Source of the DNA: Raja brachyura
Taxonomy: Eukaryota
Assembly (NCBI GenBank): GCA_963514005.1
Contig: OY740800.1
Coordinates: forward strand, 28,706,001 to 28,770,000
DNA length: 64,000 nucleotides
Reading direction: 5' to 3'
How positions within the stretch are numbered: position 1 is the first letter of the stretch; each line of letters begins with the position of its first letter. A program made the translations under genes and the position numbers. Below are positions 3,070 through 62,992 of this stretch, one piece after another. The notes below the pieces were generated by a model. The model worked only from the letters and a program-made list of their open reading frames with translations, was not told the origin of the DNA and ran no database searches.

Positions 3070-3385
3070 GAGAGACTGCAAATGATTGGGACCAGAAAAG
3101 TGCTGAAGGAACTCAACGGGTCAGAGAGCATCTGTGAAGGGAAAGGGGGGTTACACAAAAAGCTGGAGAAACTCAGCGGGTGCAGCAGCATCTAAGGAGC
3201 GAAGGAGATAGGCGACGTTTCGGGTCGAGACCCTTCTTCAGACTTTAACAATGTGAAGGGAAAGGGATGGTCAACATTTTGGGTTGAGACTCCAATTTCC
3301 AGACCTGATGCAGGATCTCAACCCAAAACGTCAACCATCCCTTTGCCTCCATATATGCTGCTTGACCTGCTGAGTTCCTTCAGAC
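3070..3385. mobile_element. Old PLE pLTR fold-back containing a younger hammerhead-bearing pLTR insert (3148-3251)
   Basis: Inverted arms. The inner insert is flanked by TGTGAAGGGAAAGGG at 3133-3147 and 3252-3266. Confidence 0.75.
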
Positions 3386-4088: not shown

Positions 4089-4550
4089 GGGTGACAATGA
4101 TACAGCTGGTAGAGCCGCTGCCTCACAGCACTAGTGACCTGCTTCAATTCTGACCTTGGCTGCTGTCTGTGTGGAGTTTGCATGTTGTCCCTGTGATCCC
4201 AAATATTTGCGTGCCGGTGGGTTAAATGACCGCTGTAAATTGCCTCTCGCTGGTAGGGGAGAGGTAGAATCCGGGGGAGTTGGAAGGAATCAGGGGAAAG
4301 TAAGACAGACACTAAAAGCTGGAGTAACTCAGCGGGACAGGCAACATCACTGGAGAGAGGGAATTCCTTCTTTACTCCAGCTTTTTGTGTCTATCTTCAG
4401 TTTAAACCAGCATCTGCAGTTCCTTCTTACACAAGGAAAAGTAAAGTGGGTTGGGGTAGGATTAGTGCAAAGTTGTGGCTGATGGTGAATGGGGACTTGG
4501 TGGTTTGAAAAGACTGTTTCCGTGTTGTTTCTCCATGACTCTGACTCTAT
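4089..4550 (+). mobile_element. HE1-type V-SINE interrupted by a PLE pLTR fold-back (~4304-4432)
   Basis: tRNA-derived head, V-domain GCTGTCTGTGTGGAGTTTGCATGTT and CR1-like tail. The inner hairpin is flanked by imperfect (A/G)GAAAGTAA-like direct repeats. Confidence 0.75.
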
Positions 4551-5770: not shown

Positions 5771-6589
5771 GGTTGTGAGGAATGTGTAGGAAAGAACTGC
5801 AGAGGCTGGTTTAAATCGAAGATAGATGCTGCCTGTCCTGCTGAGTTACTCCAGCATTTTGTTCAGCAGAGTTAAGGATAGAACTCTGAAAGGTGGGTTT
5901 AGGTGGGGTAGCTTAGTTTGTTCAACCAGCACAGTCATAACAGGCCAAAATGGTTCGGACATCCTTTATTCTTGTTTGGTATCTGGATATCCCCCACATT
6001 TATTGCTCATCCTAGATCCCTCATGCAAAATATTTGATAACTTTTCCTGCGGCCTTGTCAGTTACCAAAGTTGGACTTGATTCAACTTTGAGTTTGGCTC
6101 AACAAGGAGCGACACAATGATCCAGAACCAAAATGAACATCAAATACCTCCCAACAACAAAATAAATGCTACAAACAGGTCGGGCAACATATGTAGAGGG
6201 AGAAATGTGGAGAGTGCATTTGAAGTCAAACTGCAAAATGAGTTTGAAATCAAATGTGTATTAAGTTGCAGGGAAACAGAGGAGTGAAGAAAACGGAGAG
6301 TGTGCGATGCGGTGGAGTCTAAGAGATGAAATGACACATGGTGGTGCTGGCTGTGAGCTTATTAATATCAGTTAATCTGTCAGGAGAAGGTGTGAATGAA
6401 GATAGATAAGAGTGACAAAACATTGGTCATTTATAATGGAATGACTGGAAGTCTTTTTTTTAAAATGGGATGCTTGAAATAACCAACAGGTCAGGCGGCA
6501 ATGTAGAGAGAGAAGAATTTTACATTACAGTATCATGGCCTTTCCTTAGAACTGAGCCATCTGATAAAATGAGGAAAGGCTGATTACAT

Positions 6590-9914: not shown

Positions 9915-10330
9915 CTGACCAAGTTGCCCAAACCGAGTTGGTCCTCCTTGCCTGGCCTATATCCTTCCAAATCTCTCCTATCCATGTACCTGTCCAGGTG
10001 CCTCTTAACTGTCATAATTACACCAGCTTCTATCACTTTCTCTGGCAATTTGTTCTGTACACCCATCACCCACTCTGTGAAGTGGTTGGCCTTCGTGTCC
10101 TTTTTAAATCTTTCCCATCTCACCTAAAATATATGCCCTCTACTTTTGTACTCGCCTACTCTGAGGTTGTGGCTGGATGGTGACTATATATTTAACCCCT
10201 AATGCCCCTAATGATTTTATAAACCTCTATGAGGTCATTCCTCAGAATCCTACAGTCTAGCCTATCCAGCCTCTTCTCTTAATTCTCACCCTCCAACCCC
10301 TATAACAGCTCTGTAAATCTTTTTTGCAAG
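9915..10330 (-). mobile_element. CR1 3' fragment
   Basis: Encodes NKLPEKVIEAGVIMTVKRHLDRYMDR. Confidence 0.75.
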
Positions 10331-10601
10331 AAGTAAATGCAGGATAATTCTCCAGGATAGACTATAAGTGGCCGATAGTTGCATTTAGGTTGCCAAACTT
10401 AATTGGCAGGACAATTGCCTAATCACCTCTACGCCCCGCTGGTTTGAATGTGTGTGTCCTTGTGTCAGTGCCAGTGTGAGTGCCATGCAGTACTAAAATG
10501 AGCTTGCACACTAGCATGCTCCGCTCACTAGTGGGTCAGCTGCCACCATGAGAGGCTGCCCGAGGCCACGAGGAAGATAAACCTAAAGCCTCTTTTTCTA
10601 A

Positions 10602-10822
10602 GAAAGACACAAAACCTGGAGTAACTCAGCGGGTCAGGCCAGACAGCATCTCTGGAGGAACAGAATAGGTGTCGTTTTGGTCTGAGACCCTTCTTGAAGA
10701 AGAAATCTGAAGAAGGATCTCAACCTGAAATGTCACCAATTCCTTGACCTGACCCGCTGAGTTACTCCAGCCTTTTGTGTCTATCTTCGCTTTAAACCAG
10801 CATCTGCAGTTCTTTCCTGCAC
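10602..10822. mobile_element. PLE pLTR fold-back element with a 14-bp TSD
   Basis: Inverted arms GACACAAAA..CTGGAGTAACTCAGCGGGTCAGG and CCTGACCCGCTGAGTTACTCCAG..TTTTGTGTC. GCCTCTTTTTCTAA at 10588-10601 and 10823-10836. Hammerhead-like core at 10707-10734. Confidence 0.8.
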
Positions 10823-12059
10823 GCCTCTTTTTCTAAACCAGCATCTGCAGTTCCTTGTATCTAAGTTAAAAGTCACTTGTGTGCTGTTACCTGTGGGAAG
10901 AATTTTAAATACATGGTTTAAAAATAGCATCTTTTCCTGATTTTGAGCAACTCTGTGAGTTGTTTGGTTACATTTCTGGTAAATCTTTCCAAGAGTATCA
11001 AATGTATTCAATAAAGAATTCTATCCATGTAGCATGTAACTGGCACTTCAGAACATTGCCGCTGACAAACTACTTTCAAAGCATAAGCATTGTTTTACCG
11101 ACAAGCGCTGCGCCTTGTTTGGAAACTGCCAGGTTACAGGTGAACAATTGGATCTTTTAGATCAGCAGGAATGTAGGTGTCACTACCCTGTTACTTGATT
11201 AGATGTTTTGATTGAGGAGGAATAAAAGATCTCAGATGCCAGAAAGCTAAAATATAAACATTGTGAGAAATACTGAACAGTTACAAATGAAACGGGTTTG
11301 AAACCACAGAAAGTAAGGGAAGGGCGTCAGGAAGGCGAGGCCAAGTGCGAGATTGGGTGGAGACAAGGTGGGGTTGAAAGGTAGCCGATGAATGTTGAAT
11401 GTCAGCACCTTAAACATTCTCTCCCTCTCTCTCCACCACCATCACACGATCTGTACCGAATGTCATCTGCAAACAGCTCTACCATGGCAGCATCCCCCCC
11501 CCACACCCCGGCATAGACAGACACCGCCACCCACAGATTCCCTCCAGCTCAAACGCTATCCTATCACGGTGAAAATGGAGGACTGTTCTACACCAGAAAT
11601 GCTGCATAATCCAGCACTGTCTCCAGGCCAGTTTGGGATGGGCAACATGCGCTGGCCTTGCCATCAGCGCTCATGCCATCATGTAAATGAGTTTAAAAGA
11701 AAGAAGAAGACCCATAACATGGCCTACCCAGTTCATCCACAGATGCTGCCTGACCTACTGAGTTATTCCAGCACTTTGTGTTTTGTTTAAAAGAAAGAAC
11801 AGTGGAATGTCCTTAAAGTGAAATTTGCCCTCTGACCCATTTCAAATTGTAGGAGTAAGTGCTGAGTGACTCTCAGAAGCTCAGTGCAGCCACCGTGAAG
11901 GCTCGGGGGAGGTCCACGATCTAGGAGGGGCAGAGTCCAATAGGCACACCCCTCAAACAAGGGAATGGATACAACTTCAGGGAGCCACACAGGTGACAAT
12001 GGTGTGTGTATAGAGAAGTGCGAAACCCACAGGGCTAACACTTGCTAACACTACTGTGG

Positions 12060-12480
12060 TTATCCACTGTAGTAAACACTGCCCAGTCCATCATCGGCTC
12101 TGACCTTCCTTCCATCGAGCGGAATTATCACAGTCACTGCGTCAAAAAGGCTGGCAGCATCATCAAGGACCCACACCACCCTGGCCACACACTCATCTCC
12201 CTGCTACCTTCGGGTAGAAGGTACAGGAGCCTGAAGACTGCAACAACCCGGTTTAGGAATAGCTACTTCCCCACAGCCATCAGGCTATTAAACTTGGCTC
12301 GGAACTCTGAACATTAATATCCCTCCATCTGTTATTTGCACTTTATTAATTTATTAATTCATGTGTGTATTTACGTATATAATTGTAGTCAATGCCTTCT
12401 ATGTTCTGTTGTGCTATGCAAAGAAAGATTTTCATTGTCCTGTCAGGGACACATGACAATAAACTCTTTTGACTTTTTTG
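12060..12480 (+). mobile_element. Rex1/Babar LINE 3' end
   Basis: SIIKDPHHPGHTLISLLPSGRRYRSLKTATTRFRNSYFPTAIRLLN is the typical Rex1/Babar ORF C-terminus. Tail ATGACAATAAAC..TTGACTT. Confidence 0.85.
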
Positions 12481-12920
12481 ACGAACACTAGCAACATTGC
12501 CTGCATAAACATACTGTGTTTTATATTTATATTTTTATATTAGGAATTAATTTTATTTTGAAGTAAAACAAAAGTCTTCCATACCCCACAGTCATCCCGT
12601 AGCATCACTCACCGTTCCCATGCATTGTCGTAACCATTCCCTGACAGCAAGTTACATGGAATGCAGAGCTGAGTCATTGACAGCAGAATGGCCTCGGGTG
12701 CATTTGCGACCCATAGTCAAATAGAATGATACAACACTGCAGCACAGGATAAGCTTTATGGCACCCGGAAAAGCTGTGTGCTTAAAGTTAACTGGAGAGT
12801 GGATTGCTTTTCCTTGACATTCCTGGATTATGCTGTCATTCCGTCACATGATGATGGGGACAAGAAGCCATTGACATATGCAGCTTTCCTGCTCTCCGGG
12901 TAGTCAATTGATGAACAGAG

Positions 12921-13230
12921 GGACACAAAAAGCTGGAGTAGGGTCTCGACCCGAAACCTCACCCATTCCTTCTATCCAGAGATGCTGCATGTTCCGCTGA
13001 GTTTCTCCAGCATTTTGTGTCTTTCTTAGATGTAAACCAGCATCTGCAGCGCCTTCCTGGAAATGGGTGACGTATCGGGTCGAGACCCTTCTTCAGTCCC
13101 TGAAGCAAGGGACTGCAGCTGCTGAAATCTGGAGCAAAGAAATAAACTGCTGGAGGAACTCAGCAGGTTGAGCAGCATTTGTGGGGGGTGCCGGGGTGGA
13201 ATGGTCGATGTTTCAGCTCTAAACAATGCA
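12921..13230. mobile_element. Cluster of PLE pLTR fragments in both orientations
   Basis: GGGTCTCGACCCGAAAC at 12941, the reverse motif at ~13069-13096, and TGCTGGAGGAACTCAGC at ~13148. Confidence 0.7.
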
Positions 13231-15669
13231 TCGGCTCAATGGATGCCATGTCAACTGGTGGTCGCTGTGCAATAAGGCATCGACAACTGATGCAGTTTGG
13301 ACTTTTTGTGTCACAGAGACTGCTGTGACCCGAGACAAAGTGGATGCATCGCCCATCTGAGTAGCTGAGGCCATTTCTTTACCCATTTAAAGCACATCTT
13401 TACCCATGTAAAGTCTCCCTGCATCCTCCTGACATCTTTACTACAGAATTCTGAACTCTTCTGAATATTTTTATTTCCAGTTTTCTAACCTGCAGTATAT
13501 TACAGATTAAGAGAGACCGTCACTTTTAGTAAATCAGATTGCTATTGTGATTACTGGATATCATGTGCCAACGTTTTTAAGCATAGACATTATCTCATTG
13601 CTGCTTGCCACAGTAAATTGGCAGCCAAGTATCCCACATTAAAAATGTGTCGAGAGAAATGGCTCCACTGGGTGTTAGAAGTTTTGGGTCATCTAGAAGT
13701 AGTTAAAGGTGCTGTAAACATGCCACCTGGGCTTTACCATTACTCCTTCCTGCAAATAATAAAATAATGCAAAGTGGTTGGATACTGACTTCTTCACCAA
13801 TCCACAAAGTGGGCTTCTCCAAGAATAAAAGGTGACATTTGTTCTGTGAAACTTTCTTTTGAAATCCTTGTGTGCATTGTATTGATTTTAAAGAGTTGTC
13901 TTGTGAAACAAGTGAAGGGTGAGTGTAACTTCCTCTAGAGTGTGATAAAATAATTGGGTGAAAATTATCTGTCCTATTTTTTTTTAAAGGCAGTGACACC
14001 TAATGCAAAAGTGAGAGTGTGAAAGTGAATGGCAGAGATCTGTCAAGTTGTGATTATTTGTTGGCAAAGAATGGAAAAACAGCCAGAGCGTTTGGTTTAA
14101 ATTCTCCACGTAGTTAATCTTGGGACTTTCTAAATTGAGGCATAAATCCAACTGTGTTTTGGCCGTTTTACAAACAATAAACCAGGCTCAGCTAAAAGTT
14201 ATTCAGCAGTGGAAATTGTTTCAATGTTGCGATTAAACGCATGCCAATTGTTGGTCCCACCTCCCATTCCCTCCCGATACTTTTATTAGGTCCTCCCAGT
14301 GCTCCTTCGAGGGGGTCCTGAGCAGATGTCTGTAGTTACATGTTTTGAGCCTGTATTTTAATGTCGAGCCACATGGATCAGGCATTTTCCTCGACTGTCG
14401 TCATTAAAGCTTTTGCAGTTTCCACTCCAGGATCCCCAAGCCTCGCCATTTACAACTCTTGGGAAGATCATCAGAGACCCCAGAAGTCCAATGCCTATTT
14501 CCTTGAGTTTTGGTTGAGCTTTCTCAAGTTACAGCACATGATGAAGTAGACAATTCTACCCTCCACAGGCTTTGGCTATATCTTTAGTGATGGGCATCTG
14601 ATTTATAGCATTGCATCTTATGCATTAACTGAATATCAACTATCAACAGAATTCAGCACTTGTGCAGAAAATAAACCCCCAAAACACAAAGATGCCTGGT
14701 AGGAGATGGGGTGCCAAGCACCACAGTAAGAAGGATAATGAAGTGGTCCAAATAATTATGCTGTCATTTAAATGTGTTGTTTGTGCGCCGTGTATACTTG
14801 GGTATATGCAGCATCAAATATCACAAACTGATTTCAAGGTGGAATATTTTATTTAAATAATACGTTAAGCAAGTGTTAGCTTGTGTGAGAACTGGGAAAT
14901 GTAAAAACCTGTTTTACTGCGGGGGGGGGGGGGGGGGGGGGGGAGGTTGATGAGTGGTGAGTTTACAGGGTGGGTCAAAGAAGTGTAAGGTTTGAAGTGT
15001 ATCTCGGAGTGTTCCTCTCCGGCAACTCAATTGCACCATAAATCTTGGTCTACAATCTGATTGTTTGATGTTCAAATGAGATAGGCTGCAATCAGGTGAT
15101 AGAGGGAATTTCTGGTGAGGTCTACAAACACTTGACAAATATTTGATTTTTTTTATCTCTTAAGGGTTGCTACTCTGTGTGTCACTGGGTTGCAGCGGGC
15201 CCTGCTTCAAGGAGCTCACCACTGAGATTAAAGCAGATAAAACCAGCATTTTCAGTTGTTTCTGAATTGCCAGAGGTTGGCTGTTTTGAAGTTCTTTGTA
15301 TTATAACACTTGCGAATAATGGCCTGATGGAGTTGTAGTATCTCTCCTGTGTTAATTAACGAGGTATTACTAAACATTTATTATACGTGACACCGTTCAA
15401 GACTTCTGTCATCTTCTCGCAACGCATTTGAGACAAGTTCACAGCTAATTCAGAATAAAAGTGAATTGTTGCAATTCTCAGTCACTTGTTAAGTTTGCCA
15501 CGTCTAGGTGTTGGGCTTCAGTTAACTTCATCCCTTACCCACCAACCACTATCCTTCCCTGACCCACTGAGTTTCTACAAGTGAAATCACCCTAATTGTA
15601 GGAACCTGGAACATTTATGACACCCCAGGAGATCATGTCCGTCAGAAAATGTTTAACGAGTCTTATCCC

Positions 15670-16560
15670 ACTTTTACGGTGAGAAGGGAAAAAATTAAAG
15701 GAGCCTGAGAGGCGATATTTTCTGCACAGAGGGTGGTGGGTATGTGGAACGAGCTGCCAGAGGAGGTGGTAAAACTGGGTTACAATGCTTAAAAGACATT
15801 TGGACAGGTACGTGAATAGGACATGATTTGAAGGATATGGGCCAAATGCAGGCAAATGGGATTAGCTTAGATATGCATCATGGTTGGCAGAGATAGGTTG
15901 GGTCAAATGGCTTGTTTCCATGTTGTACAACTGTATGTACATCTTGTATATCTTATGTACATACATGAGATATAGATCAGTTATAAATAGTGGCAGAGAA
16001 ATGACAGATGGAGTTTAATCCACGGTGTTGCATTTTGAGAAATAGAATGAAAGGGGAAAGTGTACTGTCAATGTAAGACCCTTAACTGCATTGAGGACCA
16101 GAGGGATCTACATCCATAGCTTCCTGAAAGTGGCAACACAGGTAGATAGTGGCAAAGAAGACGCGTGGTGTGTTTGCTTTTAGCAGTCAGGGCATTAAAT
16201 ATAAGAGACGGGATGTCATGTTGCAGCTTTATAAAACTTTTTAGTCCAAATTTGGAGTATTGTGCACAGTTCAGTTCTTGTCGTCCCATTACAGGAAGGA
16301 TGTGGAGGATGCAGAAGTGGTTTACCAGAATGCTACCTGGATTCGAGGGTATTTGCTATAAGCAGGTTGGGTAAACTTGGATTCTTTACCCCAGAACATC
16401 AGAGACTGAGGGGAGACCAGATAGAAGCATATAAAATTATGAGAGGCAAAGTTACGGTAGATGTTCAGAACCTTTTTCAAGGGTGGAAATGTCAAAGAAT
16501 AGATAGCATAGCATGAAGGCATGTCTCTGCTCTGTACTCTGTACTGTTCTACGTTCTATG
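15670..16560 (+). mobile_element. Two consecutive CR1 fragments
   Basis: WNELPEEVV..KRHLDRY segment, then PNLEYCAQF and RLRGDQIEAYKIMRG. Confidence 0.75.
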
Positions 16561-17004
16561 ACAAAGTCTACAACACTGCAGCTCAACAAGTGGGGTTCAC
16601 GTATGGTTTAAACGTGATATGGTTTCTGCATATCCCAACTCGGGGATTACGTTCCAGACTTCCCCAGCCTCTAGGTGAATTTTTTTTTCATTCTCTCCTC
16701 CATCCTTTCAATTACATTAAATCTATGGCCCTGTTTTCTTTTTTAATTCCACTGTTGAGGAAAATAATGTATTCCTATGCCCTCTACCTAGGATTTAAAA
16801 GTCCTCAGTCAAATTTCTCCTCAGCTCCACTGGTCCATTGAAAACGCTCCCAGCCTGTCCTATCTGTCCTGGCAGTTAAACGTTTCCAGACTTGGCAGCT
16901 TGCATGTAAATCGCTCCAATGCCATCACCCCAGTAAGATGACTAGAAATGCAGGCATTACTCAAGCTCTTGTATTGTATGCATTTGAAGAATTCCTTATA
17001 TTTA

Positions 17005-17470
17005 TACCTATATTAAAAACAGGAGGGATAAAGGAGGGCATTTATGCTTGGAGTCTGGGGATGTAGGCGAGGTACTAACTGAGTTGTTTACATTAGTTTT
17101 CACCAAGGAGAACGATATTGAGCACAGGGTTGTCAGTGTGGAGAATACTAATATGCAAGGGCAATTTGAGATTAAGGAGGTGGTGGTGTTGGGGTTCTTG
17201 AAGAGCATGAACGTGGATAAATCCCCAGGACCAGATGAAATCTATCCCAAGATATTGAAAGAGGCAAGAGATGAGATTGTGGGAGCTTTGTTGAGGATCT
17301 TTGCATCTTCCCTAGCCACAGATGAGGTCCTGGAGGACTTGGAGAGTAGCTAATGTAGTTCCCTTATTTAAGAAGAGAAGTCGAGAGAATACAGGGAATT
17401 ACAAAGCCTTACATCAGGGGTAGGGAAGCTATTGGAGAGGATTCTTCGGGATAGGATTTTATCACATTTG
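17005..17470 (+). mobile_element. CR1 ORF2 fragment (endonuclease-RT linker to the start of RT)
   Basis: Encodes VDKSPGPDEIYPKILKEARDEIVGAL, the CR1 KSPGPDGI.P..LKE signature. Frameshifted downstream. Confidence 0.85.
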
Positions 17471-17679
17471 TGGAGTATCTCGTGCTTTCTTAACCATCCT
17501 ATTTCCTTGACCTACAACTGAATGCTCATATGTACCAAGGTCCCTATGTCCCCCACACCAACACCAAGGTGTGTTGGATAGTGCTAGTATACGGGGTGAT
17601 CGCTAGTCGGCATGGACTCGGTGGGCCAAAGGGCCTGTTTCCATGCTGTATCTCTAAACTAAAGTACTAAAGACTAATA

Positions 17680-17900
17680 AGTGATGTTGAACTGATACAC
17701 CATCTGCTAGCTGATGTAAAAGACCCCACTGCATGGTACTGATGTGCAAGGAGTCATCTGCAATGGTCTGGGGTTTAGTCATCAATCAACATCACTACAA
17801 AAAGTTACTGTCTGCCAGAGCTTCCTGTGGGAGTTCCAACATTACCAATTGGTAACATTTCCAAAAGTGCATAAAGCTGTCAGGGCGAAGTAACGAGCAT
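17680..17900 (+). mobile_element. Ancient Deu-domain SINE relic (SacSINE1-like)
   Basis: GATGTAAAAGACCCC and TCAATCAACATCACTA segments resemble the Deu domain as recalled. Related pieces at ~13585-13650 and 19770-19900. Confidence 0.5.
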
Positions 17901-19252
17901 GTGTAAGAGAATAGGTGAGGGAGTGGAAATGTATGGATTATTCTTGAGATGGGATAAGTGGCCTCCTCCAATCTGTTGACCAGCATTGACATGTGGAAAT
18001 TATGTGAACCAGTTATTATGTGAACCTGGATCAACCTATCACTTGGCAATGCTGGCCTACCCCTCCCCCCCCCCCCCCCCCCACCCACCCCATCTCTTTC
18101 TACCAGCTTTCCACCCTCTACTCCACCAGTCTAAAGAAGGGTCCCTACCCAAAAAGTCATCTGGTCATTTCCCTTCAGAGATGCTGCCTTGCCTGCCGAG
18201 TTCCTCCAGCAGTTTGTTTTTTGGTCTAATTTTAAAGTCTGCATGGTTCGCTCATGCAGGCAAAATGAGCAAAGACAATAAAAAATAATGCAATCAAACG
18301 TGCCATCGATGGAACCTTTGCTCTGTAAATGCAGTCTTCGATATGATCCTTGTGCAGGCAATACCAACGTTCTTCTTGGCCAAATTCTTGCATTGAATCG
18401 GTTCCAAGTGACTCGCATGTACGGGGCTCAGGGTAATTTGTGAAACGCTCAGATGTTTGATTAGATGGCCATAGGAGCTGAAGGTAGACAGTGACCAAAC
18501 CTTAAGCAGGTGTGTAGTTACAATTAAGAATTTAGCTGATGGTCCAAAGATGAAAGTTGTGATTTACTTTAATGCCACAATCTGTTGTTGTGCACCTGAT
18601 AATTCATTCTCAGATCCTTCAGAATCAGAGGTCTGGTATTTACCCAGCGAGGAAAAGGAGACCAGGGTTTACTCTCTGATCTGCGTTCCATTGACACCTT
18701 TGACGAGGAAAGCATTGCCTGAACACAGAAAAAGGAAAAATCAGACAGGGATTCTATTCCCATTTGCAGTTCAGTTGAGAAATTACATTAATGGTTAGGG
18801 GTGATGTCTAGTGCAGCCCAATAACCTTTCAACACTAATTGGACCCTCGCTTAAAGAAAAACCATTGAGATAGCTGCTGAAGCTGTTGACCCACATTAAC
18901 CTATAACAGGAAAGAGACAATATCGACGGGAGAGGAAAATAAGAAGAATGAAAAATAAATTTAAAACAGTCTGTTTAACAGAAATGCAAGTCTACCAGCA
19001 CCCAACAGTAACAAAGATCGGTCCAAGGTAAAGAAAGAGGAGACACTTTTACATTGGCGTTTGTTTGATTTGTGTCTTGGGACTTTGCCTGGAAACTGAT
19101 GTAAATTCCATTCATCTGTGATCCAAGCAAAATAAGCTCTAGTGTATGGAGATGTAGTTCACGGCGTCTTGAGCAGTTAGCCTTGGTTAAAGAGTAGCAT
19201 ATTCTCCCTCAGTTAGCAGGTATAGGTCTAAAGGAACCTATGAAAGAAGGTG

Positions 19253-19474
19253 TTTAAGAAGGAAATGCAGATGCTGGAAAATCGAAGGTAGGCAAATATG
19301 CTGGAGAAACTCAGCAGGTGAGGCAGCATCTATGGAGCGAAAGAAATAGGCGATGTTTCGGGTCGAGACCCTTCTTCAGACCTTCTTCGGTCTGAAGAAG
19401 GGTCTCGACCCAAAACATTTCCTTCGCTCCATACATGCTGCCTCACCCGGTGAGTTCCTCCAGCATTTTTGTCT
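19253..19474. mobile_element. PLE pLTR fold-back element with a 17-bp flanking direct repeat
   Basis: About 100-bp inverted arms centred at ~19385, with back-to-back hammerhead motifs. ACCTATGAAAGAAGGTG at 19236-19252 and 19475-19491. Confidence 0.85.
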
Positions 19475-21049
19475 ACCTATGAAAGAAGGTGATGGCTGGA
19501 GACCCGCAGCAGTCTGGGACTTGCCTGGAACAGGCACCACTCATAAGATCTAGCGTGGACTTGGCGCCAAAACATGGCGCCTCTTGCATGCGGGTTCAGT
19601 AGACTATTTCTGTACACTTGCTGATCGGGGATGTGGCAATACTCTATCGGACTGTTTGTAAGAAAAGGAATTACACTGTGTGTGTTAGCACTTCATACAT
19701 GTGACAATCAAAGCACCGTTGACCATTAAAGTCTTGTGAAGAATCAAATGTGAGGTGCAGCAGCGACAGAGGCGCTGCCCTTCAGACAAAGTGTTGAACC
19801 ACGATCAGGTCTGTTCTCTCGCATGAACACACAATGCTATTGAAGGACGGGGGCAGATGCAATATTCATCACTCAATCAACATCATGAATAAATAGATTG
19901 TAAATGCAGCTCAAAAAGCTTTTTGAAGCGTTTGTGTAAATGTCCACCTGTGATAATTGCTGTATGAATATATTCCTGTAACATCTTTGTTCAAAAAGGA
20001 AAACAAATAAATGATGCATCATCAGAGGACTGTTTAACCGGTCACCCACTGGTTAAAAACAGCTAGCTGCAAAACACCATTAACATGACAGCCTAACATG
20101 CTTTGTGATTCAATGAATTGGCTGCCAAGTGTGTTACTATCTGGAATTAGTTAAAATGTAAGCACAATATAGTTCCAAAGTGAGCATCTGTATTGTTTAG
20201 AGACATGTTTGGTGGTAAGGTTTGCCGTAAACCTTTTTAATTACAGCCCAAATAAGACGCTTATGATGTTCAGGTCTCCTGCTGAACATGGTTAATTAAG
20301 TGAAAAAGCCTTCACGTTGAGGTGACACAAAATGTTTGGCCAGTGTTGACAAGGAAATAAGAATGGATCAGATACAGCAGAAAATAACCGGGATTTGGAG
20401 AAAGCAGAAATTCACAGGTGAGAACGAGATTGTCAGAGGTATTAGTGGTAGTTACAGAATATACATACCAAACTCATGTGGTTGATGAAGGAGTTGGCTT
20501 CTTGTTAGGAGGAGAAGTGGTGTTACCATGGTGTAGGAGGTAACATAAAATGACTTATCTTTGTAGCCCCGGTGCCCACACCTTATTGAGTCCAGAGCCT
20601 GCCATGATGTCAAGTTCTTCCTCCCACCTCCATGCTATTTTTTGTTTAGTGAAGTGCCTCCCACTAATAGCCCTTTCTTCCATCTCCAACACTCAGCTTC
20701 CACTTGGACATCCATAGCCAGCCTTTTCCCCTCTCTCAACAATTTCACTTCCAGCAGCTGTCATAATATCGACCATCAGTCTGAAAAAGTGTCCCGACCC
20801 AAAACATTGTCTGTCCATTTCCTTCCGCTGATGGGGTGCTTATATCTCCATTATATCGGACATTGCTGAGACCATGTTTGGAATACCATGCACGGTATTG
20901 ATCACTTTAACTAAGAAACCGTACGAATGCACGAGAAGCAACTCGGAGAAGGTTTACTAGAGCAGGTGGACAAGCTTGACGTATTGACTGAAGTTTAGAA
21001 GAGTGAAAGGGGGACTTGATTGACAGTGAGTGTAAGCTTACCCTCTTGA

Positions 21050-21390
21050 ATGTTTTGATGAACAAATTGAGGATAAGCAGGATACTGCCTCGGAACATAC
21101 ATAAACACAAGCAATGTTTGCAGAGTGGTGAACGAGATTGGAATGGCCGTGGCTCTGAAGCAGAGGTGGCGTCGGTTGAATAGTTTCCCATTTGCCTGAA
21201 GGTTAGTCCACTCCAGTGGAAAGCTTGTGGGAAGTCGCTGCAATGTGGAACATTGAGAAAGGCTTGGGACAATGGTCGAGTCTTGCTGGAGACACTTTGA
21301 GATTGACCCTGTTGTGGATGGTTGGTTGGGATTGCAGTTTGTGGGAGCAGCTATACTTGTAGTGGATGCTGCACTGTCCCTCTCGATTGA
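21050..21390 (-). mobile_element. Decayed RTE-clade LINE RT fragment
   Basis: ANGKLFNRRHL, preceded by a PSLFSMF-like segment across frameshifts, resembles RTE APTLFS...YRTxGKLFNLRRL. Confidence 0.55.
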
Positions 21391-21399
21391 TGCAGTCAA

Positions 21400-22530
21400 A
21401 GCTTGTAGAACATAGAGCAGTTCAGCCAATGGCCATTCAACCCACAATGTCTGTGCCGAACATAATGCCAACTCTCATCTGCCTGCAAATAAGCCATATC
21501 CCTCCATTCCCTGCATATCCTGATGCCTATCCAAAGGCCTCTTAAATACCACCATTGTATCGTTCTTAACCACCAACCCTTATAGCACATTCCAGGCACT
21601 TTCAACCCTCTATGTAAGAAGAAAAGTTGCCCTGCACATCTCCTTTAAACTTTGTCCCCCTCACCTTAAAGCAAACCCACTTTTATTTGATTTTACCCTC
21701 CTGGGAAAAAGGTTCTGACTGTCTACCCTATCTATGCCTCTCCTAATTTTATATACTTCTGTCAGGTTTCCCCACAACCTCCAGCATTCCATAGAAAACA
21801 ATCCAAGTCTGTCCAACCTCTCCCGGTAGCTGATACCCCCTAATCCAGGCATCAATCTGGTAAACATCCTCTGCACCCTTTTCAAAGCCTCCACATCCAT
21901 CCTGTAATGAGGCGACCAGAACTGCACGCAATACTCCAAATATAGCCTAACCAAATTCCTGCTTCATGACTTCCTGACCCTATTGTACTCAATGCCCTGA
22001 CCTATGAAACCAAGCCTACTATATGTTGTCTATACCATTCTATCTACTTGTGTTGAAACTTACGGGGAGTTATGCACTTGGAATTCTCTGTTGTGGAGGC
22101 CAATTCACTGGATGTTTTCAAAAGAGAGTTAGATTTAGCTCTTAGGGCTAAAGGAATCAAGGGATATGGGGAAAATGCAGGACGGGGTACTGATATTAAA
22201 TGATCAGCCATGATCATATTGAATGGCAGTGCTGTATACCTTGACAGTCTTGCTCACAGTCCGTGACCCCTACAATCTTGGTGATGTCTGCACACTTACT
22301 AACCAGTCCATCTACATTTACATCCAAGTCATTTAATACGACTTGCACCAAGGCAAATTCCTTGCATGTATACATACTTGGCTAATAAAATGTATTCAAT
22401 TCAATTCAATTCATATGTCACAAACAGCAGAGGTCCCAGTACAGATCCCTGCAGAACACCATTGGTCACAGATGTCCAGACTGAATATTGTCCTTCCACC
22501 ACAACCCTCTCTTCTATCATTAAGCCCATT
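21400..22530 (-). mobile_element. CR1 3' region (~1.1 kb), with a plus-strand CR1 tail at ~22080-22235 and another LINE tail at ~22340-22412
   Basis: Encodes VRLYLEYCVQFWSPHYRMDVEALKRVQRMFTRLMPGL. A reverse GVLQGSVLGPLLF-like RT motif lies at ~22425-22470. Confidence 0.85.
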
Positions 22531-22903
22531 CTGAATCTATACAACCTTTTGTGCGGGTTTAAAAAGCTGGTGGTTTGTCACACCCTTAGGGTTAGCTACT
22601 AATGGGAGGTATCAATTCAAGGTGGGTGGAGTACTGCAGATCTACTTCATTAATTCAAGTATTCCTTTGTGTTCAGGTAGTCATTGTGTGGCACAATACC
22701 TGAATGAATATACCCTCACTTACCTTAGTGGTTTTCAAAGATTTTGTTCTGACTGTACAGCCGTTCCAACTCAAAAAAGCCACTAATTAATAAAGTAAAT
22801 CCAAGCTTCTGTTACAAACCAAACTTCCTTTCCTGCACTAAAACCATAAATACCAATACCAAACAGGCTCTCAAGCAGTGAGTGAAGAAAAGCGTTCTAT
22901 TTG

Positions 22904-23537
22904 GTTTAGTTTAGAGAAACAGCAATGAAACAGGCCTGTTAGCCCACTGAGTCCACGCCCACCATCAAGTACCCATTCACACTAGTTCTGCTTTACCCCA
23001 CTTTCTGATACTGTCCCCACACACTAGGAGCAATTTACAGAGGCCAATTAGTCCACAAGCCCGCATGTCTTTTGGAAGTGGAGTGCCAGGAGGAATCCAG
23101 TGCAGCCACAGGGGAAAACGTGCAAGCTCCACACAGACAGCACCCGAGGTCAGGATCGAACCAGTGTCTCTGGCACTGAGAAGCAGCGGCTCTACCAGTT
23201 GTGCCACCTCTTAGCACCCTAGCTAATATTTATTCATTAAGTGACATTGCTAAATCATCTGACATAGTTTAGTTTAAAGATACAGCGTGGAAACGGGCCC
23301 TTCGGCCCACTGAGTCAGCGCCGACCAGTGATCCCCGTACACTAACACTATCCTACACACATTAGAGACAATTTGCATTTTTACCAAGCCAATTAACCTA
23401 CAAACCGGCACGTCTTTGGAGTGTGGGAGGAAACCGGAGAAAACCCATGCAGATCCAGGGGAGAATGTAAAAACTCCGTACAGACAAACATTTGTAGTCA
23501 GTGAGGCAGCAACTCCACCGCTGTGCCATCGTGCGGC
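22904..23537 (-). mobile_element. Two tandem HE1-type V-SINEs (22904-23210, 23266-23537)
   Basis: Reverse-complement A/B boxes, V-domain and (TAAAC)n tails. Confidence 0.85.
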
Positions 23538-24889
23538 CCATTGTTTCATTGGTGTTTGTGGGGCGTGGCTGTACATGGGTTGACTGCTGCTTTTTCTACA
23601 TTGAAACTTCTTCAAAGAGCCCTCATTAGCTGTGGAGGGGTGTTGCAGGGTCGTACAAAGAGAAATAATGAATATAGACCATTCAATTCACCCACCCCAT
23701 GCCAACTATCAGCTGCCCGTTACACTAGTCCTACGTTAGTCCCATTTTATTCTCCCCACATTCCCAACTGTCCCAAATTCCATCCCTCCACTTCCCTGGA
23801 GGGGCCACTTAACCAACTAACCTGTATGCCTTTAGGATGTGGGAGAAAACCTACGTGTTCAGAAAGAGAATATGCATATACCCTGTGAAAGTCGTTGCAT
23901 GAATGTAAGTCTTTTTGTTACTACAATGACATACTTGCAGAAAAGCGTCATAATAACCTGCTCCAACAGTACTCATAGCCAGGATGGTTGTTCCAGAGTC
24001 AGGCATCACGGCGACTTAGCTCCAGGAATGAGGTCTTCACCTGAGTCGAAATTCAAATCTCACAATAGCAGAAGTGACTCAAAACTGGACCTCTGTCAGA
24101 GCATGGGCTTTTATTAGTGGACTTAACCTGCTGTACAAGGGTTAACAGGGAGGCCACTGTAGATGAGGGCTTTTATCTTTGTTCATGGGAATGGGTGAAG
24201 GAGGTAGGAAAGAGGTTCTGGCCCTCAGCAAATAGGAGAAACTAATATATATTCATTGCTGGTTACAAGCAACACACCGAGGAAAGCACTTTGTGGAGTT
24301 GGTGTTCTAAACTTGCAGTGAACTAAGCAGAAATGTCAAAGTCAGTACCCATTGACGTGGAAATGAGTCTGTCCCTCTGCATAAAGACTTGTTATTCAGC
24401 AGGAAGTAAAATGTCTTCGCTGACTGGTGTGAGTATAATATATGGGAGAATAATTGTGGTAAAGCAATTGATCTTCTTACAAGGAGGTGGTTTAAAAAGT
24501 GGCAGGTTTTGTGATGCAGCTTAGTAAAAAACCATGATACTGACAGCTCATAAATCTATTGGGCTTTCTACTCAGACCATTAAAAGACAGAGTAGTAAAA
24601 TCAAAGTCCATTTTATATAATATATTTTAATTACTGCCCCATTTCTCATAGTAAAAGGATGCTGTTCTGCGACTTACAAAGCATTTTAATAAAGAATCGA
24701 GGATACCACACTTCCCTTCCTACACCCCTCACAGCAATTGCTGCAGCTGTCTGGGAATGAGTATGTCGTAAAGCTGCAATCTACCTACTGCGCTCGCTCG
24801 TTCCCCCAAAGTACTAGAGGGAGCCTGAGCCCAATATCAATTGAGACTCATCACACTGTGAACCCAAGGTGTTGCCTCTCGGTATCTTC

Positions 24890-25670
24890 GCATACAACCT
24901 AACGGTATGAACATTAAATAATACAACCTAATGATATGAACATTGAATTCTCCAATTTTAGGTAACCTAACTATAAACACCTTTTCCCATTTTATTTACG
25001 TATTTGTTTGTTTTTATGTTTCTCCCCTTCTCCGTCTCTTCCCCGTGCTCCACCTGGAATTGGAACCATTTCACCCCTTCCCCAACTCTGGGTTGGTGGG
25101 TCTCTGGAACTCTCTGCCACAGAGGGTAGTTGAGGCCAGTTCATTGGCTATGTTTAAGAGGGAGTTAGATGTGGCCCTTGTGGCTAAAGGGATCAGGGGG
25201 TATGGAGAGAAGGCAGGTACGGGATACTGAGTTGGATGATCAGCCATGATCATATTGAATGGTGGTGCAGGCTCGAAGGGCTGAATGGCCTACTCCTGCA
25301 CCTATTTTCTATGTTCTATGTTTCTAACTCGTTTCCAACTGTATTTTCTTCTCTGACTTCACAAATTACACCTCTTCTATCCTTATTTCACACCTTTTGT
25401 CTTTTTATCTCTGGCCTGTGTTCAACCTATCAAAAACCTGTATCCACCTATCACTCACCCAGCTTTGTCCTCCAGCTTTCTCCTCCCCCTTCACCAACCA
25501 CAATCAGTCTGACCTGAAACATTGCCTATCCATGTCCACAAAAAAAATGCTGCCTGGCTTGCTGAGTTACTCCAGAACTTTGACTTTTTGTCTTTTCAAT
25601 GTGAAACATAAACTATTCCTTTCCACCTATAGATGCTGCTCGACTCACTGAGTTCCTCCAGCAGATTATT
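24890..25670 (+). mobile_element. Penelope 3' end (ORF terminus plus pLTR), interrupted by a CR1 3' fragment at 25090-25325
   Basis: CAACCTAATGATATGAACATTGAATTCTCCAATTTTAGGTAA translates as QPNDMNIEFSNFR*, the typical vertebrate PLE ORF end. A pyrimidine-rich UTR follows, then a collapsed hammerhead (CAGTCTGA..GAAAC, ~25505) and ATGCTGCCTGGCTTGCTGAGTTACTCCAG. Confidence 0.75.
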
Positions 25671-26637
25671 TGTAAAACATGGTAAATGGTTGTTTTCTGT
25701 CTTCAAGTCAATTTCTTAACCTGCCACTGACCTGCTGCATGGTCCCACCATTTTCTGATTTTATATTAGATTCCCAGCATCTACAAGTTTATTGATTTTC
25801 TCCCCATCCCGTCATTGTTTTGTAACCTCCCAAAATGCGACAACACTCCTGCAGCAGAAATATTGGTCTCTTCTGAGGTCTGGCCTATCTGGCCTGTGGA
25901 GTTCCTTCCTCACCAAAAACAGTTCCCGTTCCACATGCATGAAGCCTCCCCATTGAATCATCTCTCCAGCTTTGGTTGGCTAGTACTGATATGGACCAAG
26001 ACCTCTAACTGCTCGCCCTCAAAGAAAATAGGAGCAGGAATAGCCCATTTAGCTCCTCAAGACTGCCCCACCCTGTAGCATGATCAACTCATCCTTTGTA
26101 CCACATCCCTAAGTACTCAATCTCCCACCCTTTTGAAAATTAAAAATTTCTAATGACAGGAGCAGGAGTAGACCACCTGGTCCTTCAAGCTTGCCCCACC
26201 ATTCAATACGATCACACTTTAAAGATTTACTACCTTCTGCGAGAAGGAATTTCTACCAGAGAACCACTTATACGTTACTTTGGGAATTGCCAAGTAGAAA
26301 AAAAAGTTGTCTACTGGGGAAAAAAATAGTCAAGGAAAAAAAGTTTCCATATAACCTCTGCAGTAATTAGGCAATATTTCCTCTTAAGAACACAGTCTAT
26401 CAGTTTCACCGCTGGTGGTCATTGAAAATTTACAAGCATTCGCTTCTAGTGACACAATGCAACATACAGACCTAAGTATTTATAGCAGTAACAAAAATAA
26501 TCCTATCATTATTGAAAAATCGGTATTTTTGATAGTCCTACAAGAGGTTTTTTTTTTTAAATTGTGTGTCTAAATCTCCCCCCCCCCCCCCCCCCCCAAA
26601 CTGTGCCCCCTCCCTTATTTGACACATTTGTTTTACA

Positions 26638-26850
26638 GCTTGTGGCCTCACTTTGACAGTGGAGGCCCAGGACAGAAAGGTAAGTGTGGGAATGGGAAGG
26701 GGAGGTAAAATGTTTGCCAACCGGGAGATCGTGTAGGCCAAGGCAGACTGCGCATAAGTGTTCAACTAAACGATTGCCCAGTATGCGCTTGGTCTTGCCG
26801 CTATACGGGAGACCACGCCGAGAACAACGGATGCAGTGGACGGGCCACAC
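26638..26850 (-). mobile_element. Penelope-like GIY-YIG endonuclease fragment
   Basis: Encodes VHCIRCSRRGLPYSGKTKRILGNRLVEH...DLPVGKHFTSPSHSHTYLSVLGLHCQSEAT, matching the PLE pattern VYCIxC..C.L.YIGETKR.L..RF.EH...PVA.HF. Confidence 0.85.
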
Positions 26851-27230
26851 GCCGGGAATATCCCACTGTAGACTCGGACCACCCTGTAGAACTCGACCCC
26901 GAGCCGTTGGCATCTACGAGACCCGCGCCGTCTGAGAGCCAGGAGGGACCCGCAAGCAACTGCACAGAGCGATAGCTATCCGGGGGGGGGCATAGAGAAC
27001 ACAAGGACCTGGCGGGGGAGGGGGGGGGGGTTGCTGCTGCCACAAGCAGCTGTGGATAGAACTGTTCTGTGAGCTTTTGTAACTTTTTTGCCGTCAAAAT
27101 TTGGCGACACTCATGTACTCCCTAGGTGAGGTCTGCTATATGATTTTACTGGGTTGTAAGCAAAACAAAGCATTTCACTGTACATGTGCCAACAGAATAC
27201 CTTTGAATCATTAACAACACAAGAATTCAA

Positions 27231-27324
27231 ATCTGAAGGAGGGTCTCGACCCAAAACGTCACCCTTTCCTTCTCTCCAGAGATGATGCCTGTCCCACTGA
27301 GTTACTCCAGCATTTTGTGTCTAC
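27231..27324 (+). mobile_element. Short PLE pLTR insert beginning at the hammerhead core
   Basis: TCTGAAGGAGGGTCTCGACCCAAAACGTC...TTTTGTGTCTAC, flanked by CAAGAATT(C/T)AA at 27220-27230 and 27325-27335. Confidence 0.7.
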
Positions 27325-27732
27325 CAAGAATTTAACTATCAGGCTACTATTAAAATACATGCAATTAAGCCCGTTTAACCTCAATGAAGTAACTCACTCC
27401 ATTTTACCACAAGGTCGCCTTGCTAGCTCTCTACCTCATTCACTGGGGTCCTGATGCGAAGTACATCCTGATCCTCTCTTCCTGGTCTGGCTGCTCCACT
27501 AATGGGCTCGATGGTGACTCTAGAGGTGGACTATTCGTCTCTCACTTACAACTTTGTGGACGTTCACAAGAGTATGAGCTGTGCATGGCTCATAGTTGAC
27601 GGTTCCCTTTGCATAACTGGATAGGGCGGTGTCATCTGTGGGAGATTTGCACTCAAACCGTGTCAGTAGTGAGAAACTTGGTGCTGGTGACAAATTCAAC
27701 GTAAAGAGATGCACGTCAATATGAACATCAGA

Positions 27733-27866
27733 AGTATGTAGGAAGGAACTGCAGATGCTGGTTTAAACTGAAGATAAACACAAAAAAGCTGGTGTAACTC
27801 AGCGGGTTAGACAGAATCTCTGGAGAAAAGGAATAGGTAACGGTTTGGGTTGAGACCCTTCTTCAG
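27733..27866 (-). mobile_element. PLE pLTR insert
   Basis: Full arm plus tail, ending at CTTCTTCAG. Flanked by ACATCAGA at 27725-27732 and 27867-27874. Confidence 0.7.
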
Positions 27867-27909
27867 ACATCAGATGCATCCCAAAATCATTGTCCCAGTG
27901 TACAAATTT

Positions 27910-28207
27910 GGGTGGTCATGGAGGCGCAGCGGTAGAGTTGCTGTCTTACAGCGCCGAAGGCCCGGGTTCAATCCCGACTACGGGTGCTGTCTGTACGGAC
28001 TTTGTACGTTCTCCCCGTGACTGCATGGATTTTCTCTGAGATCTTCGGTTTCCTCCAACACTCCAAAGATATACAGGTATGTAGGTTAATTGACTTGGTG
28101 AATGTGTAAATTGTCCGTAGTGTGTGTAGGATTGTGTTTCGAATGGTCTGTTTCTACGCTGTATCTCTCTAAACTAAACTAAACTAAACTAAACTAAACT
28201 AAACTAA
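27910..28207 (+). mobile_element. HE1-type V-SINE with a long (TAAAC)n tail
   Basis: A box GGCGCAGCGGTAG, B box GGTTCAATCC, V-domain and (TAAAC)7. Confidence 0.9.
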
Positions 28208-29109: not shown

Positions 29110-31090
29110 AATAGTTTATTTGATTCTCAATTACTTAAAATTGAAGGTTGTGCAGAGGAATGGAGCAAGGGTAACGACCTGTTGGACCGGGGAATTATGA
29201 CAAAGTGCATTTGGATTATGGAAAGATGGAAATGCAACGGGGTTATCCTAGTGAGAGACAAAGTGCTGGAGTAAATCAGCCGGTCCAAGGCATCTGTGGA
29301 CAAAATGGATAGGTTACGTTTCCAGTTAGGTCTGTCGAAGGGTCCCAACCCAAAATGTCACCTATCCATTTTCTCCAGAGTTGCTGCCAGACCCACTGAG
29401 TTAATTCAGCACTTTGCATCTATCTTTGGTATAAACCAGTATCTGTAGTTCCTTATTATTACATTAGGGTTATCTTAGTGGGTGAATTTAACTTTCCCAA
29501 TACTAACCAGAACTTGCTCAGTGCCAAAGCTTACATGCGGCAGAATTTGTGAGGTGTATCCAAGAGACTTTTGTGAAACAGTATGTGACTAGTCCAACCC
29601 GAGAAGGGAACTTGCTGGACCTAGTGGTCAGAAATGAGCCTGGTCAAGTGACTGGTGTTTCAGTGGAAGAGTATTTTGGGGATAGTGATCACCACTCTAT
29701 AACTTTAAGGTTGCTTTCAATAGGGAGAAGGCTGGACCTTGTGGGGAGGTGATAAATGACATTAAGGCAAACTACAATGTTATCAGGAAGAAGCCGAGGG
29801 GGGAAAGCTGGGAGCAATTGTTATTGGCTGTCCAAATCTGATATGTGGGAGTTGCTTGAAGGGCAAATGGTCGATGTTTAGAGCCAACATGTTCCAGTAA
29901 GGAGGAGGGATAAGGATGGCAAAGGAAGGAAGCACTGATTGACCAAAGAGATCATAAATTTGGTCAAAAACAAAAAGGAAGTGCATGCAAGGTTTAAGAG
30001 GATGGAATCAGATAGGGCCTTAAAGGAATATAAAGAAAGAAGGAAAGAACACAAGCAAGTGACTAGATGGGCCAATAGGGGCCATAAAATGGCTTTGACG
30101 AATGGCTTTAAAGAAAATTCAAATATTTGTGTACTTGTATTAAATACAAGAGGATAACCAGGGAGAAGGTAGGACTGCTCCAGGATAAAGGAGGGAATTT
30201 GTGCCTGGAATCTCGGGAGAAGGTAGGAGAATGGGGTTAAGAGGGAATACTACGGAAAAGGACATGAAGAACAGTGAGATCAGCATAGAGAATACTAACA
30301 TGCGAAGGAGGTTTGAGATTAAGGAGGTGGTGTTGGGGCTCGTGTAGTACATGATAGTGGTTAAATGTGGTCCAACTCCATAATTCCCTGAAAGTGGGAA
30401 TGCAAGTAGATAGAGTGGTAAAGAAGGCATATGGTATGCTTGCTTTCATAGGTAGGGACATTGAGTATAAGAGTCAGGAAGTCGTGATGCAGCTATCTAG
30501 GACTTTGGTAAGTCTGCATTTGGAGTAGTTAGTGCAGTTCTGGTCGCCTCATTACAGGAAGGATGTGGAAACTTTGAAAAGGATGCAGATGAGGTTTACC
30601 AGGATGATGCCTGGATTATGGGGTAATAGCTGCAGGGAGCAGTAAGACAGACTTGGATTGTTTTCTCTGGAACGCCAGATATTGTGGGGAGACCTGATAG
30701 AAGTATATAAAATTATGAGAGACAGCTCATGTCTCATATGAGAATCTTTCTCCCAGGAAAATCAAATACGAGAGTGCAGAGCTTTAAGGTGAGGAGGGGG
30801 AAGTTTAAAGAATGTCCAGGATTGGCAACACTGCCTCAGCCCCCTAGGTCCGCACTGCACTCTGGATTCATTCCTGATCTCACCACCCTTCATCGTCTTT
30901 TTCCTTTCTTCATCAGTCTCATGGTCATCTAGAGTTGTCAAAGAATACATCAGGATATAGATCAGCTACAGAAATGGGCGGGGAAATGGCAGATGGAATT
31001 TAGTCTGAGGAAGTGTGAGGTGTTGCAGTTTGGGAGGTGAAATCTAAGAGGAAAATATACATATAATGGCATGATTCTTAAAAGCATTGA
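29110..31090 (+). mobile_element. Fragmented CR1 ORF2 (APE endonuclease to RT C-terminus) with a pLTR fold-back inserted at 29254-29466
   Basis: QYVTSPTREGNLLDLV...GDSDHHSI (APE SDH motif) followed by later CR1 motifs. The insert is flanked by GGGTTATC(C/T)TAGTG at 29240-29253 and 29467-29480. Confidence 0.85.
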
Positions 31091-36754: not shown

Positions 36755-37153
36755 AAAAACAAACAGCTTGGTGATCTCAGCGGGTCAAACAGCAGCATTT
36801 GTGGAGGAAACGGACAGATTACTTTTTAGAGCAGGATTCTTCTTCAACAGGTGCCAACTCAAAATGCCATTTGTCCATTTCTTTCCATGGCTGATGCCTG
36901 ACCCGCTGAGTTCATCCAGTAGTTAGTTTCCTGCTCAAGATTCCATCATCTGCAGCTTCTTCTATCTCTGTGTGGGAAGGAACTGCAGAAGCTGGTTCAC
37001 ACCGAAGATAGACACAAAAAACTGGAGTAACTCAGCGGGTCAGGCAGCATCTCTGGAGAAAAGGAATAGGTGATGTTTCATGTCACCTAAATGTCACCTA
37101 TTCCTTTTCTCCAGAGATGCTGCCTCACTCGCTGAGTTACTCTTCTACCTCTG
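36755..37153. mobile_element. Two adjacent PLE pLTR fold-backs (old ~36755-36960; younger 36971-37140 with its apex deleted)
   Basis: Inverted arms. The younger copy is flanked by TCTTCTA(T/C)CTCTG at 36958-36970 and 37141-37153. Confidence 0.75.
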
Positions 37154-60635: not shown

Positions 60636-60830
<195 letters not shown>

Positions 60831-62967: not shown

Positions 62968-62992
62968 GTGAGTGCAACTGTATGGAATGGAC

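Follow-up and report, generated by a model that had tools for sequence, protein, structure and literature searches.

A 64,000-nt stretch of the Raja brachyura genome (contig OY740800.1, positions 28,706,001 to 28,770,000; hereafter the window) contains, at window positions 19236-19491, a hairpin that is a decayed head-to-head pair of 5'-truncated copies of one repeat unit of about 133 nt, enclosed within a single 17-bp target-site duplication (TSD). The source of these stubs is likely a Penelope-like element (PLE), and the insertion at this locus is dead and of an ordinary kind. Ten further head-to-head pairs of the same unit occur in the window, and each hairpin was likely built at its own insertion. 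We consider it probable that this happened in one insertion of an endonuclease-bearing PLE, with both nicked target strands priming reverse transcription. A preceding sequence-only reading had offered two origins, a recurrent two-primer product of PLE integration and a self-propagating hairpin retroelement; the former is favoured here, all apices in the window being unique. The parts of the locus are as follows.

19236..19252, plus strand: left TSD copy, 17 bp (TSD search, 17/17)
19253..19382, minus strand: tailed arm, model positions 1-132, of a unit resembling a PLE pseudo-long terminal repeat (pLTR; profile search and hand curation)
19253..19289, minus strand: 37-nt tail, only on the left arm (arm comparison)
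19352..19379, minus strand: minimal hammerhead core of the left arm; CUGAAGA, GAAA and UH present, C15.2-G16.2 pair gone (CpG-type change)
19383..19388, no strand assigned: insert at the apex, re-copied with slippage from the final bases of the left arm
19389..19474, plus strand: tail-less arm, model positions 1-93; core dead (G12 altered, 7-nt deletion across the cleavage site)
19475..19491, plus strand: right TSD copy; its first 4 nt match the continuation of the element

The perfect direct repeat (17/17) reported to flank the whole hairpin is borne out at 19236-19252 and 19475-19491, and its score was reached by none of 802 null pairs of mismatched flanks. For the insert of 222 nt the predicted folding energy is -139.4 kcal/mol, with z = -16.08; 0 of 200 shuffles equalled it. 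Other parts of the original description need adjustment. The inverted orientation of the arms holds, but they measure 130 and 86 nt rather than about 100 bp each; the element size of about 220 bp fits the inserts at 19236 (222 nt), 10588 (221 nt) and 29240 (213 nt) better than that at 36958 (170 nt). Back-to-back hammerhead cores are present at 19236 and largely so at 10588, but not at 29240, where one arm begins at model position 17, or at 36958, where both begin at 25, the CUGANGA box being missing. An extra tail on one arm was correctly recognised, although the letters quoted for it at 19236 do not apply, the actual tail being a subfamily variant. The suspicion that some TSD nucleotides may belong to the element was justified, as 4 TSD bases at the tail-less end match the continuation of the element.

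A profile built from the window copies returned 48 pieces and, in a second round, 49, with one weak match in the reversed window as control. Curation by hand assigned 24 of the 49 pieces to 11 head-to-head pairs, 3 to one complex locus and 22 to solo copies, which together occupy 6.1% of the window. The model comprises 133 positions and includes a minimal hammerhead core and a tail of about 37 nt that is not always present. The pLTR copies in the window are 5'-truncated: the 5' ends of 16/49 pieces lie at model 1-2, immediately before CUGAAGA. The 3' ends gather at two places, model 93-99 (19/49) and model 120-133 (19/49), and tail-less hairpin arms and solo copies end at the same model place; a tail is present in 7 of the 22 solos. 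Four tail-side pieces (8542-8572, 10834-10862, 5784-5828 and 50146-50178) have their 5' edge at model 87-104, by the inner of the two 3'-end places, as if copying from the tail often stopped there.

The pairs are not chance neighbours, because the 5' ends lie no more than 15 nt apart in 10 of the 11, whereas random placement of 44 arms gave a mean of 0.11 and a maximum of 3 such pairs (20,000 trials). Left out of the pair count were the ambiguous three-piece locus at 12921-13097, whose first two pieces would also be one-tailed; the pieces at 7113/7319, which are separated by 74 nt and were taken as two solos; a piece at the edge of the window (4-27); and the weak matches at 6176, 15558 and 44936. 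Besides 19236, the pairs are the following (no strand assigned).

10588..10836: sister hairpin, TSD 14/14, right arm tailed
29240..29480: sister hairpin, TSD 13/14, within a probable long interspersed nuclear element (LINE) fragment
36958..37153: sister hairpin, TSD 12/13, inserted where the older hairpin 36753-36962 has its tail end
48122..48513: sister hairpin, absent from the sequence-only reading's list, TSD 15/17, apex split by a later insertion of about 175 nt
5784..5862: pair without arm overlap (model 89-133 and 50-89), with the geometry of twin priming; TSD not found
4302..4433: head-to-head pair with one tail; a 7-nt apex piece resembles a deletion remnant
3066-3384, 28935-29112, 36753-36962 and 50146-50268: further one-tailed head-to-head pairs

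Three features recur among the eleven pairs. First, exactly one arm carries a tail in 11/11 pairs, which independent arms would give with P = 0.00049 if half of them were tailed and with P = 0.00010 if the tailed share were that of the solos, 7/22. Second, the arms overlap in 10/11 pairs, the exception being 5784-5862, where they meet at position 89. Third, the apex junctions differ in all 11. Judged by eye, the pairs fall into several sequence subfamilies, and subfamily-type letters are common to both arms of each pair. Using 29 loci with hand-set boundaries and the 802 mismatched left/right flank pairs as null, TSDs were found with p <= 0.004 at 10/29 loci, namely 5/11 hairpins (14, 17, 14, 13 and 17 bp), 5/17 solo loci (15, 15, 12, 13 and 9 bp) and 0/1 complex locus. 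The TSDs reported for the three sister loci at 10588 (14/14), 29240 (13/14) and 36958 (12/13) are thereby upheld, and all four named TSDs, that of 19236 included, have p <= 0.002 each.

Comparison of the apices had been put forward as a way to tell a self-propagating unit, with shared junctions, from formation de novo, with unique ones; run within the window, it yielded 11 different apices for 11 pairs. A self-propagating, non-autonomous hairpin retroelement bearing a ribozyme on each strand would account for the similar size and layout at several loci, with one TSD around each. It might also be expected from the depth of four apex-type joints in related organisms (runs X7, X13 and X14), which sums to 1,350-2,919 compared with about 10-90 in unique DNA; these joints could represent amplified hairpins or, more simply, an effect of the depth measure, which averages over each contig, is raised by repeat words and does not give a copy number. 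Against self-propagation stand the unique apices and the several subfamilies, the TSDs of the same kind around solo copies, and the state of the ribozyme: an intact core is found in 0/22 hairpin arms compared with 3/22 solo pieces, and the core is fully paired in the hairpin RNA. We therefore hold self-propagation to be very improbable.

The ribozyme itself deserves a closer description. The consensus core consists of CUGAAGA, one extra A, a helix II of 4-5 bp opened by a G-C pair, GAAA and CGUC, and includes G10.1-C11.1. Exact matches to CTGANGA-N(11-15)-GAAACGTH number 3 in the window, all in solo copies, compared with 0 in 100 shuffles. A transcript of either hairpin strand would contain a single sense core fully paired with the other arm, and the predicted pair probability of helix II is 0.0 on both strands. 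The claim of a ribozyme on both strands thus finds support on neither count, with a full core in none of the 22 arms and the sole sense core buried, and as a ribozyme the hairpin product would be dead on arrival. Helix I, judged by eye, has 2 bp in four long copies and 3-4 bp at the 19236 apex, where the upstream letters are perhaps insert; PLE hammerheads have a helix I of 4-5 bp, or 2 bp in a D. virilis variant. No hammerhead family was reported on the unit by an Rfam search at gathering thresholds or among the 15 rows listed by E-value, and the E-value search on the hairpins gave only sub-threshold microRNA matches. Minimal metazoan PLE hammerheads (PMC4209133) share with the unit CUGANGA, the extra base before helix II, G10.1-C11.1, GAAA, the self-complementary 15.2-16.2 and the lack of a loop III. 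They differ in helix II, which has 7-8 bp in the Schistosoma families and 4-5 bp here, and in the 5' strand of helix I, which is mostly cut off in the window unit. As described in PMC4209133, such minimal hammerheads need a second copy to form an active dimer, and Schistosoma has motif pairs on opposite strands, 100-700 bp apart.

A miniature inverted-repeat transposable element (MITE) of the DNA-transposon kind would likewise be short, hairpin-forming and very abundant. However, only 4-6 of the 15 terminal nt are symmetric at 5/5 TSD-bounded hairpins, and their TSDs vary (13, 14, 14, 17 and 17 bp), whereas the same window holds at 51644-51952 a MITE-like element, presumably of PIF/Harbinger type, with 48-nt terminal arms that are 96% complementary and TAA on both sides. 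The argument of the sequence-only reading that asymmetric arms and variable TSDs of 13-17 bp point to retrotransposition is supported; the fixed short TSD and symmetric termini of a MITE are not what is seen in the window, and such an origin has next to no likelihood. With apices that differ, cores that are dead and termini that are asymmetric, the hairpins are neither MITEs nor, most likely, self-copying ribozymes.

How, then, would such a hairpin arise? A TSD together with outward-facing 3' ends of both arms is the geometry that, by analogy with target-primed reverse transcription, would be expected if each nicked strand primes antisense complementary DNA (cDNA). In the series of events that we propose, the GIY-YIG endonuclease of a full-length partner would nick both target strands with a stagger of 13-17 nt. 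One 3' end would then be extended from the tail start site (about model 132-133), and the second would begin at the inner one (mostly model 93-99), probably helped by a pairing of 2-4 nt. Both start sites would most likely lie on one RNA or in one dimeric ribonucleoprotein (RNP), which would explain why each pair has exactly one tail. Synthesis of both cDNAs would halt, in most cases at the upstream border of the hammerhead core, and the cDNA ends, unable to anneal fully, would be joined by microhomology with short slipped re-copies before repair fills in the TSD. A pairing at the inner end is hinted at by the first TSD bases, which match the partner arm over 4, 2, 0, 2 and 3 nt at five loci, a sum of 11 compared with a null mean of 1.8 (P = 0.0004).

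Head-to-head PLE junctions have been read differently in the literature: in self-priming, or copy-back, the template folds back at its end and the mirror arm is copied from it, as proposed for an antisense template from palindromes at inverted junctions (PMC3846280). This would suit the 6/11 pairs, 19236 among them, in which the tail-less arm is contained in the tailed arm or coextensive with it, and a copy-back that halted early would also yield one tail per pair. However, in 5 pairs it is the arm without a tail that begins closer to the 5' end of the model and so includes sequence missing from its partner (in 4 pairs the two starts agree to within 1 nt, and in 2 the tail-less arm begins later), and the arms at 5784-5862 do not overlap; copying back from the tailed arm could not yield such pairs. 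Moreover, the apices at 19236, 10588 and 36958 are short slipped re-copies of adjacent bases and not palindromes, and the end of the short arm coincides with that of solo insertions. Taken together, one tail in 11/11 pairs, the non-nested arms and the inner-end microhomology favour two primers at two sites over self-priming, which we regard as unlikely.

Two primers could also have copied two RNAs from different source copies, one per subunit of a dimer. Arm-arm differences (54/318 non-CpG sites) exceed TSD-TSD differences (4/75; Fisher p = 0.01), which may reflect two RNA templates or may arise because TSDs were picked for their conservation. The partner arm is the mutual nearest neighbour in only 3/11 comparisons (19236, 28938 and 36958), and on two RNAs overlapping arms would require no strand displacement. 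Against this, one tail in 11/11 pairs is not explained by two RNAs as such and would be left as a bias without a cause; at 5784-5862 the meeting point of the arms is the inner start site, which is where two primers sharing one RNA would be expected to place it; and the arms of each pair share their subfamily-type letters. We consider two RNAs improbable, if only a shade more so than self-priming, and favour two primers placed, most simply, on one RNA, similar to the twin priming of LINE-1 (L1) but with overlapping arms, an overlap that would need strand displacement.

Besides the arm divergence just described, several points weigh against a two-primer insertion of a PLE on one RNA. The sample is one 64-kb window, and the arm ends were set by hand and are accurate to a few nt. 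No significant TSD was found at 6/11 pairs, and the microhomology, when measured against the all-family consensus instead of the partner arm, amounts to 1, 2, 0, 2 and 0 nt, a sum of only 5. Old palindromes that later suffered deletions could also account for the non-nested arms. Neither a PLE reverse transcriptase nor a GIY-YIG domain was found in 148 reading frames compared with Pfam (the 145 longest of 424 frames of at least 55 aa, and 3 chosen ones), and the tie to a PLE reading frame hangs on a 15-residue peptide with a putative, unconfirmed likeness to PLEs. No empty orthologous site was seen among the listed contigs of four related organisms, in which repeats are piled up. Finally, the anole PLE protein in vitro starts at a site without homology and with no difference in start site between strands (PMC11167929).

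The same work on the anole protein also describes a system close to our proposal. In the Poseidon element PAc of the green anole, the protein nicks and extends both strands, and two internal start sites bound the tail, as proposed here; a dimer is predicted, and hammerhead cleavage is not needed for insertion (PMC11167929). As for PAc, most 5' ends in the window lie upstream of the cleavage site (16/49 at model 1-2). Unlike PAc in vitro, each window pair has one of each end and a hint of inner-end microhomology. In L1 twin priming (Ostertag and Kazazian 2001, as related in PMC2246262), both ends of the break prime on one RNA, leaving part of the insertion inverted. There, two different regions of the RNA are copied, whereas the arms in the window overlap in 10/11 pairs, and the L1-type feature of non-overlapping arms meeting at the internal priming site is present in 1/11 (5784-5862). 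A further difference is that the second start site in the window is recurrent and used by solo insertions too.

A more far-reaching reading, to which we give somewhat less than even credence, is that the hairpins preserve the traces of a dimeric PLE enzyme for which twin priming on a single RNA was obligatory, with one start at the tail site and one at the inner site. If so, the length of the tail would reflect how far apart the two active sites are and the 13-17 bp of the TSD how far apart the two nicks, and twin priming would replace self-priming as the source of inverted pLTRs in PLEs and explain the one-sided tail. Inverted ends and a one-sided tail have been ascribed to unknown cleavage properties of the endonuclease (PMC8557442). 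Within about 250 bp the stubs display the junction, the stagger of the nicks and the two sites of priming, and they are dense enough that a genome-wide count could separate twin priming from self-priming; the one-tail rule, now quantified, and the non-nested arms are the parts that deserve such a count, and the anole in vitro system could test the proposal. Hairpins of this kind are also open to mis-annotation as MITEs or microRNA precursors.

The assignment to PLEs is likely and rests on architecture: a minimal hammerhead core, an optional 37-nt tail, an inverted truncated partner and a variable TSD, all of which support the PLE-type pLTR with tail suggested at the outset. An inverted 5'-truncated copy and a one-sided tail of 30-40 bp are typical of PLEs (PMC8557442; PMC3846280). 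Insertions of the Pen2a_Av type share with the window hairpins the inverted 5'-truncated copy adjoining the 5' end, the tail at one end and the enclosure of the whole unit within one TSD; the TSDs measure 13-17 bp in the window compared with 8-10 bp in the rotifer examples. The window hairpins differ from this type in having no reading frame between the arms and, at several apices, slipped re-copies in place of palindromes, and may be set against it in density, with 11 pairs per 64 kb. The 19236 type thus matches the known PLE insertion with inverted pLTR and tail, reduced to stubs, and its layout has already been described for the class. No paper applying twin priming to PLEs or describing the window family was found in a search that left subscription journals, Repbase and Dfam mostly outside.

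Non-LTR retrozymes are a related case. Like the window unit they are short, non-coding and PLE-related, with a type I hammerhead and TSDs of more than 4 bp, but they form head-to-tail tandem arrays, whereas the window contains head-to-head pairs with dead cores and solos (PMC7229834; bioRxiv 10.64898/2026.07.22.740005, which samples one cartilaginous fish). A retrozyme array was rejected as an explanation, there being no head-to-tail tandem units each with a complete hammerhead. No tandem array of the unit was found among 20 rows from Tandem Repeats Finder; a pair on the same strand at 25504-25675 is partial and has no core.

Four copies extended upstream (18130, 20780, 25507 and 50749) have CAG directly before the main 5'-end point, and three of the four also a pyrimidine-rich tract, so that the upstream edge of the core looks, by its letters, like a splice acceptor. 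The intron of D. virilis Penelope ends at helix I (PMC4209133).

Contig sets of four related organisms were compared over 10300-30200 at 85% likeness. Both joints and loose ends of contigs cluster at model 91-94 and at the tail end (27737), the latter with 1,161-1,563 loose ends per run, and in organism D one joint halts the tail arm at position 94. The apex-type joints number 4, all different, among the 12 insert-bearing joints listed of 800. The left junction of the 10588 hairpin is bridged by two listed contigs, from organisms C and F, and therefore this insertion predates the split from both. The 19236 hairpin is bridged by none of the listed contigs, about one million contigs per run being piled on repeats. 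The unit had 0 matches in viral contigs (3 scans) and 0 in prokaryote genomes; the only metagenome match, L001, was rejected as a chance match in DNA of 64% G+C.

Several other copies in the window bear on the order of insertions.

3133..3266, minus strand: solo copy with intact core and 15-bp TSD, interrupting an older hairpin arm
12921-13097, minus/plus/minus: three-piece locus, the plus piece with tail; no clear TSD
24918..25590, plus strand: longest copy, with a 15-codon frame ending in a stop, about 540 nt (of which about 210 are another repeat) and a pLTR unit

When 3133-3251, the solo together with one TSD copy, is excised, the arm of the older hairpin becomes continuous again, and excision of the 36958 hairpin restores an older tail end. 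For 29240, a reconstructed pre-insertion site within a CR1 coding motif had been claimed: the rejoined flank indeed gives a stop-free frame of 67 codons with one TSD copy, but the identity as a LINE endonuclease is weak, as the match of the flank to a LINE endonuclease (Pfam PF14529, E = 0.11) lies below the cut-off, and a homolog search with the flank 29507-29749 gave no match among longer proteins. The locus at 12921-13097 represents either one insertion nested within another or a hairpin that was rearranged. At 36958, 10588, 13097 and 3133, copies have inserted into older members of their own family or next to them, three at an older tail and one mid-arm; a preference for the element's own tail as target is possible. 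The solos at 3150-3246 and 42088-42161 are near-identical, with perfect TSDs of 15 and 13 bp and the same 3' end, and represent the youngest subfamily in the window. The frame in the longest copy ends in a stop at about 24918-24964, some 540 nt upstream of a unit; its peptide is the 15-residue one mentioned above, and it may resemble the end of the PLE reading frame. A pyrimidine-rich frame at 58870-59466 was rejected as a PLE remnant, having no Pfam match.

Elsewhere in the window, a broken LINE reverse transcriptase fragment lies on the minus strand at 40266-40700 (Pfam RVT_1, E = 2.4e-07), an AT-rich 34-nt inverted repeat at 32923-32997 is unrelated to the hairpin family, and a CpG-rich stretch occupies 46001-48000. 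Exons with PET and LIM domains, which we take to belong to a prickle-like gene, are located on the plus strand at 56559-63162.

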